Positions 57,043-57,361 of a stretch of DNA of 64,000 nt are shown in pieces. The position numbers and the translations under genes were made by a program. The stretch is from the NCBI GenBank assembly GCA_026396065.1, contig JAPLXO010000011.1, positions 74,748 through 138,747 of the forward strand, given 5' to 3'. Below the pieces are notes generated by a model, which searched no databases, was not told the DNA's origin, and saw only the letters and a program-made list of their open reading frames with translations. This stretch comes from Candidatus Nomurabacteria bacterium (GTDB taxonomy: Bacteria; Patescibacteriota; Minisyncoccia; Phycocordibacterales; UBA9973). Position 1 is the stretch's first letter. Every line of letters starts with the position of its first letter.

Positions 57043-57361
57043 TTGTCCCGATTCTGATTTATCAGAATCGTGGATCCTCGATTTCTTTAAAATTTAATGT
57101 TTTATTAATTTTTCAACTTCTGAACGTTTCTTCCAACTTTTTATCTGAAATTCTCTTTTTCGTGCTTCAGATAATGTTTTATATTCTTCAGTATATACTA
57201 TTTTCCATGGTAGATAAAATTTAGTAGATTTTACTAAACCTTTATTATGTCTAGATAATCTAATGTTAATATCTTCACAGCTACCTATATAATATCTACC
57301 ATTTTTTATTGAGTTTAATATGTAAATATAAAACATTTTTAAATTTTAGAAATCGGGACAA
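57043..57361. mobile_element. putative GIY-YIG mini-element bounded by 10-bp inverted repeats
   Basis: TTGTCCCGAT (57043-57052) and ATCGGGACAA (57352-57361) flank the GIY-YIG ORF; a perfect palindrome cgattctgat-tt-atcagaatcg (57049-57070) overlaps the left repeat. Confidence 0.3.
57094..57336 (-). CDS. GIY-YIG nuclease-family small protein
   Basis: MFYIYILNSIKNGRYYIGSCEDINIRLSRHN is a GIY-YIG motif; 80 aa; second such gene in the window. Confidence 0.65.
   Translation of the reverse strand: MFYIYILNSIKNGRYYIGSCEDINIRLSRHNKGLVKSTKFYLPWKIVYTEEYKTLSEARKREFQIKSWKKRSEVEKLIKH

Follow-up and report, generated by a model that had tools for sequence, protein, structure and literature searches.

A GIY-YIG minigene between Cys-rich paralogues of a Candidatus Nomurabacteria genome as a likely member of a hairpin-bounded nuclease cassette family

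Is the small GIY-YIG gene that lies between two Cys-rich paralogues in this genome an ordinary gene with coincidental repeats beside it, or one copy of a mobile unit? The stretch analyzed here (the window, 64,000 nt) had been read earlier from its letters, and the earlier note proposed that the gene is bracketed by 10-bp inverted repeats as a unit of about 320 bp, that a perfect palindrome overlaps the left repeat, and that the gene and a second GIY-YIG minigene in the window belong to a small mobile nuclease cassette family. The two 10-mers, TTGTCCCGAT (57043-57052) and ATCGGGACAA (57352-57361), lie exactly where they had been placed, and the inverted repeat is perfect over 11 nt (TTGTCCCGATT at 57043-57053 and AATCGGGACAA at 57351-57361). 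The palindrome, CGATTCTGAT-TT-ATCAGAATCG, its overlap with the left arm, the 80-aa ORF and the position of the ORF between paralogues 2 and 3 were all confirmed (Table 1). Chance would seldom produce the repeat: an exact inverted repeat of at least 11 nt between the two intergenic spacers (58 and 50 nt) was found in 4 of 5000 shuffles and at 2 of 1273 equally spaced control positions within the window. The 10-mer occurs at only two sites in the 64 kb, both at the cassette, and the TCCCGAT hairpin is likewise present in the window at this cassette only and is not dispersed. Not all ten positions belong to the element: G|TCCCGAT and ATCGGGA|C are kept in relatives, whereas the outer TT/AA are flank bases, on one side part of a Cys codon of a host-gene fragment and on the other part of the A-rich leader of paralogue 2.

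Table 1 Features of the GIY-YIG cassette, its neighbors and the second minigene locus in the window.
Feature	Position	Strand	Remarks
tRNA-Glu / GIY-YIG minigene 1 locus	32993..33409	+	
tRNA-Glu 5' remnant, three pieces	32993-33004, 33040-33049, 33085-33088		
GC-rich hairpin inserts in the remnant	33005-39, 33050-84		35 nt each
GIY-YIG minigene 1	33098..33358	+	
Intact tRNA-Glu(CTC)	33337-33409		
Intact Cys-rich paralogue 2	55299..57035	-	complete copy of invaded gene type, directly downstream
Stretch between cassette and paralogue 2	57036..57045	-	sense CAAAAAAGAT
Whole cassette	57046-57358		313 bp
Right end ATCGGGA (sense; TCCCGAT on +)	57046..57052	-	left arm of the first-noted repeat
Hairpin 2	57046..57074	.	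sense TCCACGAT-TCTGAT-AA-ATCAGA-ATCGGGA; includes the 22-nt palindrome 57049-57070
Central 16-nt palindrome ATCGTGGATCCTCGAT	57067..57082	.	sense ATCGAGGATCCACGAT; invariant in par-type alignment
GIY-YIG nuclease ORF	57094..57336	-	80 aa, single domain; Pfam PF01541
AT-rich leader TTCTAAAATTTAAAA	57337..57351	-	outer stem of hairpin 1; holds host-fragment stop; invariant columns in par-type alignment
Left end TCCCGAT (ORF sense; ATCGGGA on +)	57352..57358	-	right arm of the first-noted repeat
Truncated 5' Cys-rich paralogue fragment	57359..57384	-	ATG GAA ACA AAA AAC TGC CAA AAT TG = METKNCQNC
Cys-rich paralogue 3	57387..59063	-	

The order conserved in the family is G|TCCCGAT, AT-rich leader, GIY-YIG ORF, ATCGWGGATCCWCGAT, variable hairpin, ATCGGGA|C. 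An additional conserved palindrome, overlooked in the first reading, sits immediately after the stop codon in most loci. Its first half pairs with the left end and closes hairpin 1 around the ORF, which thus lies within the loop; its second half opens hairpin 2 and pairs with the right end. The proposed unit of about 320 bp stands as a bounded cassette, but its conserved design is two hairpin modules and not a single pair of terminal repeats. Hairpin 2 of the window copy folds as DNA at -10.5 kcal/mol, with z of -4.4 and -4.7 on the two strands. The leader includes a -10-like TAAAAT, 6 nt 5' of the nuclease ATG, and the promoter scan gave no excess of promoter-like matches over chance at the cassette. 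The terminator scan revealed no T-run terminator there, and no Rfam match was obtained in 56800-57600 at E up to 1.

The protein matches Pfam GIY-YIG over residues 1-71 of 80 (E=1.6e-15). Sequence matches in the PDB were to the UPF0213 proteins 1zg2 and 1ywl and, weakly, to SLX1, and these matches together settle the predicted fold. The catalytic-motif columns are invariant in the protein alignment, and there is no sequence outside the catalytic domain, with both DNA-binding domain and linker absent. A single-sequence search placed the minimal GIY-YIG relatives in 7078 clusters at 50% identity. In hhalign, the window protein aligned ungapped to a homologue from Azospirillum whose gene is flanked by SRM repeats (probability 97.7%, score 70.0, E 1.4e-12), and its score against the UPF0213 protein BH0048 was lower (52.7), a proxy comparison that covered these two proteins in place of the SsnA reference and the cd10448 model. 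This suggests that the closest described relatives are the Ssn single-stranded DNA (ssDNA) nucleases, which are flanked by hairpin repeats. The viral collection contained no relatives of the protein. Six exact matches to the central palindrome in that collection were set aside as chance, being in high-GC phages without a GIY gene.

We compared about 70 distinct homologous loci from Patescibacteria metagenomes. G|TCCCGAT was present at 51 of 74 left ends, with the G in 49 of the 51 and TCCCGA in all 51; conservation upstream was nil, giving a sharp boundary. At the other end, ATCGGGA follows a hairpin at 23 distinct right ends of the protein type and at 21 of the tRNA type. Although the inner sequences of hairpin 2 are unrelated, 22 of 23 distinct homologues fold at z<-2, and the stems carry compensatory changes (CGAT/ATCG to CGGT/ACCG and CGGC/GCCG). 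Hairpin 2 is conserved as a structure amid sequence turnover. For hairpin 1, 138 of 182 positions were paired between the leader and the 7 nt 5' of the central ATCG (permutation mean 98.6, maximum 116). The same ends flank homologous ORFs at dozens of loci in unrelated genomic contexts, which supports the cassette family proposed in the earlier note. The nuclease tree clusters by target, with clades for the Cys-rich paralogues (par), atpG, tRNA-Lys, tRNA-Thr and tRNA-Ala, and the insertion junction is identical within each target class. Nested or tandem cassettes were seen in L024, L028/30, L029 and L076.

At tRNA-type loci, the cassette splits a resident tRNA and carries a complete replacement tRNA within hairpin 2, where leader/trailer pairing around the cargo tRNA covaries in 20 of 21 loci. 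The bases past ATCGGGA resume the resident tRNA exactly at the break in 16 of 17 testable loci, and flanks joined in silico gave an ARAGORN-valid tRNA at 6 loci. The remnant and the intact tRNA show compensatory D-stem differences and therefore descend from two functional genes. At protein targets (the Cys-rich family and atpG), the cassette lies in a short 5' gene fragment with an intact copy directly downstream; this intact gene keeps the target sequence, usually without an insertion. Minis that lack an ORF but have the same ends are also precisely inserted, and at many unrelated positions: in the D-arm, the anticodon loop, the T-loop and a par gene. In one of them (L054), at the same site class as the window cassette, the par gene resumes in frame after the mini (CQNC|KQSFTIEPDDF). 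Across the loci, insertion is precise and without target-site duplication, and essentially every interrupted gene is accompanied by an intact copy. The bases next to the cassettes are G and C (or T), and they form no direct repeat. The gene fragment that is duplicated is 26-70 nt long, diverged and one-sided, and a few resident bases follow the right end, which ruled out a simple target-site-duplication model. Decaying copies also exist, including a remnant with a stop codon in L017 and degraded 3' tRNA halves.

The window site has the protein-type layout. The "target-like DNA" noted beside the minigene is the truncated 5' copy of the invaded gene: METKNCQNC begins 2 nt past the paralogue 3 stop, ends at the insertion point G|, and runs in frame into the cassette (METKNCQNCPDF; METKNCQNC|PDF), stopping 9 nt 5' of the nuclease ATG. 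Fragments of this type (M..CQNC or CKNC, ending ..TG|TCCCGAT) occur at 8 of 8 aligned par-type loci. Compared with the N-terminus of paralogue 2 (MEHQSESKICQNC), the fragment is a second copy of the gene end and of different origin. The idea that this upstream mini-ORF is a functional leader peptide was ruled out, because the N-terminus typical of the paralogues is recognizable in it and because it is degenerate in L017. On the other side of the cassette, the first bases of CAAAAAAGAT probably continue the invaded gene (..TG|C AAA AA = Cys-Lys-Lys), the rest being the leader of paralogue 2. The sequence (A/G)CAAAAAAG(A/T)T ATG is conserved downstream of the cassette in par-type loci, and at atpG-type loci the equivalent bases, CAATGGAGC, continue the atpG reading frame. 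Paralogue 2 itself retains the target sequence CAAAACTG|C. A cassette-free window site would read ...AACTGCCAAAATTG|CAAAAA..., and no cassette-free allele of this exact site was found among the loci compared, a set that left out the nearest, P0002, with a 94% identical protein.

The second minigene of the window shares the layout. The 5' remnant of a tRNA-Glu is broken by the two hairpin inserts, and the minigene and an intact tRNA-Glu(CTC) follow it (Table 1). The two window proteins are 38% identical. The earlier assignment of both genes to one family holds for the arrangement of a split and an intact tRNA-Glu, but TCCCGAT ends are absent from the minigene 1 locus. At the same tRNA-Glu position in L064, a GIY cassette was found in which the resident tRNA halves flank a foreign complete tRNA-Glu.

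The window copy is old and under purifying selection. Against 7 par-type relatives, dN/dS was 0.04-0.18 at dS of 0.7 to more than 2, and the end motifs are invariant even though synonymous sites are saturated. It is intact, and long residence at the site is more probable than a fresh insertion. Among par-type loci, the nucleases are 70-87% identical and the adjacent par genes 31-50%, and the upstream neighbors vary (paralogue 3, rseP, a pseudouridine synthase or another cassette end). The window and L017 are syntenic (identity 73% for frr and 60% for rseP), with dS of at least 0.7, so that the par-type insertion may have passed vertically for a very long time, as would suit domestication and selfish persistence alike. 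Among relatives, the order of the paralogue arrays is rearranged. The genome locus with the best match to paralogue 3 (L001, 74% identity) has no downstream synteny, and none of the roughly 45 par gene copies in L001-L016 has a par-type cassette. A GIY gene beside a paralogue in L008 was rejected as another type, associated with a tRNA 3' end.

We consider it reasonably likely that the unit at 57046-57358 belongs to a family of hairpin-bounded GIY-YIG cassettes that is found widely among Patescibacteria and spreads in a homing-like manner, the mode of mobility being our inference. By analogy with Ssn, the 80-aa protein would act on single-stranded DNA, recognizing its own hairpins and nicking them at the base. 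An allele with the cassette would then serve to repair the break, through copying or recombination, and the neighboring gene segment would be co-converted during repair, so that the remnant and the intact copy would be of different source. ORF-less two-hairpin minis would be mobilized in trans. The fragment frame ends 9 nt ahead of the nuclease ATG, and the promoter and start site of the invaded gene therefore probably drive expression of the nuclease. GIY-YIG enzymes hydrolyze DNA and are not known to have a joining activity; the nuclease therefore leaves the precise insertion of minis, free of target-site duplication, unaccounted for. The absence from the window of SRM pattern matches and of dispersed TCCCGAT hairpins also speaks against this reading, as do intact downstream copies that keep the target and yet usually escape insertion. 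More tentatively, and as a proposal slightly more apt to fail than to hold, these elements may form an undescribed class of self-compensating gene invaders of Patescibacteria, with an Ssn-like 80-aa nuclease and two hairpin modules, which insert precisely into tRNA genes or the first codons of protein genes and survive because a working copy is brought or kept.

Other explanations were weighed against this one. A classical free-standing homing endonuclease would cut a double-stranded target (CAAAAYTG|C in par, the anticodon loop in tRNA-Ala) and spread by gene conversion, the hairpins serving only as transcript-level signals for stability, processing or insulation from the downstream gene. The clades that track targets and the single identical insertion point per target class agree with this, as does the conservation of the leader and 5' end of the intact gene along with the cassette, which suggests co-conversion; precedents come from T4, with SegB among clustered tRNA genes (PMC2330249), and from fungal mitochondria, where mobile ORFs are accompanied by duplicated gene ends (PMC3630166). 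We nevertheless regard it as unlikely. The protein is a bare catalytic domain, its nearest characterized relatives cleave ssDNA at hairpins and not double-stranded DNA (dsDNA), and the supposed recognition site is still in the intact copy. Moreover, precise ORF-less minis with the same ends lie at many unrelated sites; therefore the ends, and not flanking homology, define the mobile unit. Quite unlikely, too, is a domesticated, immobile module of nuclease and hairpins with a host function, which, as proposed for SsnA/NTS in Neisseria, would influence how incoming or replicating single-stranded DNA recombines near particular genes and might here control gene conversion or diversification of the tandem Cys-rich array. 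SsnA does modulate transformation in N. meningitidis (PMC11893778), and strong purifying selection on ORF and ends across saturated synonymous distances, the syntenic position in the window and L017, and the rearranged arrays of relatives would all suit such a role. Against it, cassettes of the same type also break atpG and tRNA genes and never do without a spare copy, which resembles a parasite more than a regulator; some copies are nested, tandem or decaying, and the cassette is absent from most par arrays.

An intron-like element, in which complementary ends would join the gene halves in the transcript, remove the cassette from the RNA and leave the genes functional, seems very improbable. 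Precise insertions, pairing ends and anticodon loops, the classical intron sites of tRNAs, would be expected of it, and CPR rRNA genes are known with GIY-YIG-encoding insertions that are not group I or II introns (PMC11270868). It is opposed by the intact replacement copy beside essentially every interrupted gene, by remnants that decay and gather further inserts, and by the lack of an Rfam intron match. Joining the window fragment to the downstream sequence would also yield a protein whose N-terminus is duplicated, and the frame is lost in L024, L027 and L029. It is scarcely credible that this is just a small gene for a repair nuclease, with a terminator-like palindrome, and that the inverted repeat arose by coincidence. 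Minimal GIY-YIG proteins of the UPF0213/Slx1-like kind are usually considered housekeeping (PMC1564403), and AT-rich spacers hold many weak repeats; the comparative data, however, already contradict this reading, as the repeat is kept in dozens of loci besides being rarer than chance, no T-run terminator is present and the flank is a gene fragment.

If the gene-invader proposal is right, such cassettes would cause tRNA genes and the 5' ends of genes to be replaced horizontally, and element propagation would be a natural function for the Ssn nuclease family, tying it to a mobile-element life style with mappable insertion sites. The cassette family would represent a poorly described route by which selfish DNA enters essential genes while the cell survives. 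Of the "hypothetical nucleases" in candidate-phyla bacteria, minimal GIY-YIG proteins are some of the most common, and they are usually annotated as repair enzymes. The proposal would account for GIY-YIG genes beside tRNA genes and for tRNA and gene fragments across these small genomes, and would imply that many database members of the family bear false N-terminal extensions translated from host-gene remnants. Cleavage specificity and the joining step would become testable with short oligonucleotides.

Several known systems resemble the cassette in part. IS200/IS605 and REP/RAYT elements move by hairpin-guided single-strand transposition. They share with the cassette subterminal hairpins as cis sites, precise insertion without target duplication, and ORF-less derivatives. 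In contrast, those systems rely on an HUH tyrosine transposase, which rejoins DNA by way of a covalent intermediate, whereas no HUH (Y1) transposase is present in the window cassette, whose sole ORF is a hydrolytic GIY-YIG enzyme; the joining step must therefore come from elsewhere. Integrative elements that target tRNA genes restore the target with their own copy of the gene end, via integrases. The restoration of a disrupted tRNA by element-borne sequence is common to both. However, integrative elements insert in the 3' part of the gene and leave a duplicate of the crossover segment alone, whereas the cassette carries a whole tRNA, inserts in the anticodon loop or D-arm and encodes no recombinase. 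Unlike classical IS and MITEs, the cassette has no short target-site duplication flanking its inverted repeats, and unlike group I and group II introns it shows no ribozyme core by Rfam covariance model (56800-57600).

Fungal mitochondrial mobile ORFs with a duplicated gene end, in Allomyces atp6 and Glomus atp6, atp9, cox2 and nad3 (PMC3630166), likewise combine an endonuclease ORF with a foreign copy of a gene terminus, with the native remnant alongside and of different origin. They duplicate the 3' end, whereas the Patescibacteria cassettes duplicate the 5' end or a whole tRNA; their enzymes are LAGLIDADG or multi-domain GIY-YIG proteins and not a bare catalytic domain, and conserved hairpin ends are found only in the cassettes. 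The Seg proteins of T4-like phages, such as SegB in a tRNA cluster, are free-standing GIY-YIG homing endonucleases (PMC2330249, PMC2988022). The cassettes resemble them in catalytic domain, intergenic ("intronless") location, flanking-marker co-conversion and tRNA gene neighborhoods, and show the homing-type trait of one insertion site per lineage with co-inherited flanking markers. Seg proteins differ in their length, about 200 aa or more, in their DNA-binding domain, and in having no hairpin ends, ORF-less derivatives or cargo tRNA inside a hairpin.

The closest parallel is offered by the Ssn nucleases and their NTS/SRM hairpin repeats (cd10448; Chenal et al., Nat Commun 2025, PMC11893778), for which the architecture of gene plus hairpins is already known. 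The NTS-ssnA-NTS arrangement was likened there to insertion sequences ("identical to insertion sequences"), IS200/IS605 and REP/RAYT are also cited, and the enzymes cut ssDNA at hairpins and not dsDNA (PMC11893778). Both groups have a single-domain GIY-YIG protein of about 80-95 aa (80 aa in the window, against the 80-100 aa expected of Ssn) without an accessory domain, and hairpin-forming repeats with a TCCCG...CGGGA core on both sides of the gene. The published SRM pattern, HGTCWYN(0-2)YYVSBRHN(0-5)WNVSBRGN(0-2)RNCYNB, had 0 matches in the 64-kb window; the same expression had 4 around the Azospirillum homologue gene. In-gene cassettes, replacement copies, CPR and tRNA go unmentioned in the main text of that paper (PMC11893778). 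SRM-type repeats occur in hundreds of copies, whereas the window hairpin is not dispersed, and the CPR cassettes differ from Ssn in lying, precisely bounded, within tRNA, atpG and Cys-rich genes together with a replacement tRNA or an intact copy.

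The earlier note had described a GIY-YIG ORF between inverted repeats with a perfect palindrome at the left one, and a direct read of the region and a Pfam match confirmed all three elements. The perfect inverted repeat was found to be 11 nt long, and its 10-mer has no further occurrence within the window. The 50 nt from the stop of Cys-rich paralogue 3 to the nuclease ATG read, in the ORF sense, TC ATG GAA ACA AAA AAC TGC CAA AAT TGT CCC GAT TTC TAA AAT TTA AAA. They hold a mini-ORF, METKNCQNCPDF followed by a stop, that lies between paralogue 3 and the nuclease and in whose first nine codons the N-terminus of the Cys-rich family can be recognised (compare MNSETRNCQKC in paralogue 3 and MEHQSESKICQNC in paralogue 2). 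One repeat arm therefore consists in part of a codon for Cys that belongs to a truncated host gene. The nuclease stop is followed in order by ATCGAGGATCCACGAT, a hairpin, ATCGGGAC, AAAAAAGAT, and the ATG of intact paralogue 2.

Features of the cassette and of the split tRNAs in the window
Feature	Position	Strand	Details
Left repeat	57043-57052		TTGTCCCGAT
Right repeat	57352-57361		ATCGGGACAA
Palindrome	57049-57070		22 nt, perfect
Nuclease ORF	57094..57336	-	80 aa; Pfam GIY-YIG E=1.6e-15, residues 1-71
Minigene 1 locus	32993-33409		nuclease ORF 33098..33358 (+), tRNA-Glu remnant and intact tRNA-Glu
tRNA-Ile(GAT) 5' half	15268-15233	-	36 nt; identical to start of intact tRNA-Ile
Intact tRNA-Ile(GAT)	15175-15103	-	
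tRNA-Ile 3' piece	15060-15041	-	20 nt, ATAAGACAGAGGTAGATGGT; downstream of intact copy
GC-rich hairpin	~15040-15016	-	follows tRNA-Ile 3' piece

A Candidatus Nomurabacteria MAG encodes a protein identical to that of the window. Close relatives number 111, most of them with a Patescibacteria annotation; the full-library search returned 7078 clusters at 50% identity (E up to 1e-3). We compared flanks in the contigs of two relatives and 80 metagenome loci, giving ~74 distinct copies. Conservation begins sharply at G|TCCCGAT (G in 49/51, TCCCGA in 51/51), and no conserved sequence was found upstream of it in the 51 left ends. Before the nuclease ATG comes an AT-rich leader containing TAAAWTT, and ATCG-W-GGATCC-W-CGAT directly follows the stop; in protein-gene loci a hairpin of variable sequence and then ATCGGGA come next. 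When eight loci in Cys-rich genes (par-type) were aligned, the end motifs were invariant and the ORF was conserved, while the sequence upstream of the host-gene fragment was unrelated. Many database relatives (P0112-P0259; P0002, P0008, P0016) have N-termini 20-40 aa longer or continue beyond the stop into the central palindrome (..SRIHDSD, ..IEDPRF). Rather than real domains, such additions are probably artefacts of gene calling that read through into remnants of host genes and cassette ends.

The ends form two hairpin modules. The 7 nt 3' of the left end and the 7 nt 5' of the central ATCG were paired at 138 of 182 positions; when loci were randomly re-paired, the count averaged 98.6 and never exceeded 116. 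In hairpin 1 the left end pairs, across the ORF, with the first half of the central palindrome, and in hairpin 2 the second half pairs with the right end. Right-end modules (TCCnCGAT...ATCGGGA) folded at z < -2 in 22 of 23 distinct cases (median -5.2); their inner sequences have nothing in common, and their closing pairs swap compensatorily (CGAT/ATCG to CGGT/ACCG or CGGC/GCCG). Folded as DNA, hairpin 2 of the window has -10.5 kcal/mol and z -4.4. The left/right repeat of the earlier note arises because TCCnCGAT is common to all four half-sites.

In ~45 of the distinct loci a tRNA gene (Ala-CGC, Ala-TGC, Lys, Thr, Gly, Cys, Ile, or Glu) lies directly 3'. Upstream, a partial 5' copy of that tRNA stops precisely at G|TCCCGAT, and the complete tRNA is followed by the right end ATCGGGA and the 3' half of the resident tRNA. 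Of 17 testable loci, 16 have bases 3' of the right end that resume the interrupted tRNA exactly at the break, and flanks joined in silico gave ARAGORN-valid tRNAs in 6 loci. In 20/21 loci the carried tRNA has a complementary, covarying leader and trailer, whose pairing extends hairpin 2 through the acceptor stem. The D-stems of remnant and carried tRNA differ compensatorily (e.g., GTAA/TTAC versus GTAT/ATAC in L089), and the two therefore stem from two functional genes. A tRNA-Glu locus (L064) gives the same picture of remnant and carried copy. Dead resident tRNAs accumulate additional ORF-less two-hairpin derivatives (minis); a dead tRNA-Lys (L080, after 615) has three separate inserts, in the D-arm, anticodon loop, and T-loop. 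Of 80 distinct hairpin modules, 70 have a GIY ORF no more than 400 nt away.

Several loci showed further arrangements. In L079 (2787-3680), a duplicated block (tRNA-Ile plus the interrupted 5' part of tRNA-Ala) lies on either side of the nuclease gene, with a complete tRNA-Ala and, further along, an orphan 3' half. A more distant GIY-YIG gene (41% identical; L008, 6440-6900) lies between two copies of a tRNA 3' end (..CTCTCCCGCGCA), which points to another subfamily whose members duplicate their target's 3' part instead of the 5' part. The other GIY-YIG minigene to which the earlier note had alluded is indeed present in the window (minigene 1) and is 38% identical to the cassette nuclease. Its ORF includes the initial 22 nt of the intact tRNA-Glu. 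The tRNA-Glu 5' remnant is split into three pieces by two GC-rich hairpins, each a precise 35-nt insert with core TCCCG..CGGGA, and the two are 80% identical; no tRNA-Glu 3' remnant was seen downstream. The tRNA-Ile locus is the third split-and-replaced tRNA of the window (15016-15268), and neither a nuclease ORF nor TCCCGAT ends were found there.

Cassettes in protein genes, including the Cys-rich family, atpG (MESLQNLKKRIKSV...ITK|AME), and others, are without cargo. The right end is succeeded by a few bases that resume the invaded gene (CAATGGAGC for atpG) and then by a leader and the complete gene. At the start of a Cys-rich gene (L054; MNSETKTCQNC), a mini interrupts the exact site used in the window, after which the frame resumes (KQSFTIEPDDF). 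The gene for the ATP synthase gamma subunit, atpG, was a recurrent target (L036, L039, L042, L043, L053, L057, L060, L062), with the cassette after codon 21-22 (..ITK|AME) of a 5' fragment and complete atpG downstream. The Cys-rich proteins (window 53500-59063; L001-L016) have ~560-585 aa, and their sole Pfam trace is a weak C-terminal treble-clef zinc finger in paralogue 3 only (23.6 bits versus a gathering cut-off of 27). In Patescibacteria and Saccharibacteria their genes stand close together in tandem, with as many as seven copies per array, and the arrays are rearranged between relatives.

In most protein-gene loci the truncated host ORF continues into the left end, and its stop lies 6-9 nt before the nuclease ATG (par-type) or overlaps it as TAATG (atpG type). 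This suggests that the promoter-less nuclease borrows the promoter and start site of the invaded gene via translational coupling. The nuclease ATG is preceded, 6 nt upstream, by a -10-like TAAAAT, but promoter-like matches were not above chance level. Searches of the window cassette found no intrinsic terminator and matched no Rfam family.

The mobile nuclease cassette family proposed in the earlier note is borne out by the anatomy shared among relatives and by precise insertion. Nuclease clades track target class. Among par-type loci the nucleases are 70-87% identical versus only 31-50% for the adjacent Cys-rich genes, which diverge as much as paralogues of one genome. The upstream neighbour varies (paralogue 3 in the window, rseP in L017, pseudouridine synthase in L018, the right end of another cassette in L024 and L029), and tandem or nested copies occur (L024, L028/30, L076), including two tandem nuclease copies in L076 (3001-3651). 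No par-type cassette was found in ~45 Cys-rich genes from 16 genome loci.

We consider it likely that this is an Ssn-like, hairpin-guided nuclease cassette that would spread by break-induced copying or recombination and would persist because an intact gene copy accompanies it. Its anatomy and precise insertion are shown by the comparison, and we infer its enzymology and joining step as well as how the 5' fragment arose. Classical homing guided by the protein is unlikely. Slightly less likely still is domestication of the cassette. Par-type copies have dS of 0.7 to >2, near saturation, and dN/dS of 0.04-0.18, and the window shares the frr-rseP neighbourhood with L017 (frr 73%, rseP 60% identity). 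The dS values and this neighbourhood speak against a recent jump of the window copy, which, given also the low dN/dS, is old, intact, and kept under selection. That the non-coding ends stay invariant over such distances shows them to be functional. Excision at the RNA level is very improbable. Least probable of all is coincidence, as an exact inverted repeat of at least 11 nt between two ORF-flanking spacers arose in 4/5000 shuffles and at 2/1273 control positions along the window.

By sequence, the window protein is a minimal Slx1/UPF0213-like GIY-YIG protein (1zg2, E 1.3e-9; 1ywl; weak SLX1), a class traditionally viewed as vertically inherited repair enzymes (PMC1564403). Chenal et al. 2025 showed that Ssn nucleases, a sister class (cd10448; in N. 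meningitidis 94 aa), cut ssDNA beside the hairpin repeat NTS/SRM, with core TTCCCGCG...CGCGGGAA; their paper makes no mention of tRNA, CPR, or gene-internal insertions (PMC11893778). The window profile aligned with probability 97.7% and E 1.4e-12 to an Azospirillum plasmid homologue whose flanks match the published SRM pattern four times, and its score was higher there (70) than against UPF0213 (52.7); the pattern itself has 0 matches in the window. On Azospirillum lipoferum plasmid AZO_p3 (L102, 1379-1887), a textbook Ssn/SRM unit lies between sufB and sufC within a conserved operon; it consists of a GIY-YIG gene (97 aa) with two inverted pairs of CGTCATCCCCGCGAAGGCGGGGATCCAG on its flanks. 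A survey of rRNA insertions in CPR reported GIY-YIG ORFs that lie "outside the context of homing", in inserts belonging to neither group I nor group II introns (PMC11270868). No paper describing the cassette, the tRNA that it carries, or the 5' gene fragments turned up in our literature search. Fungal mitochondrial mobile ORFs bring a foreign gene C-terminus while the native one stays as a remnant, a spare-copy logic that the cassette mirrors (PMC3630166). The cassette is a variation on known kinds, namely Ssn-type gene-plus-hairpin units and homing elements with duplicated gene ends.
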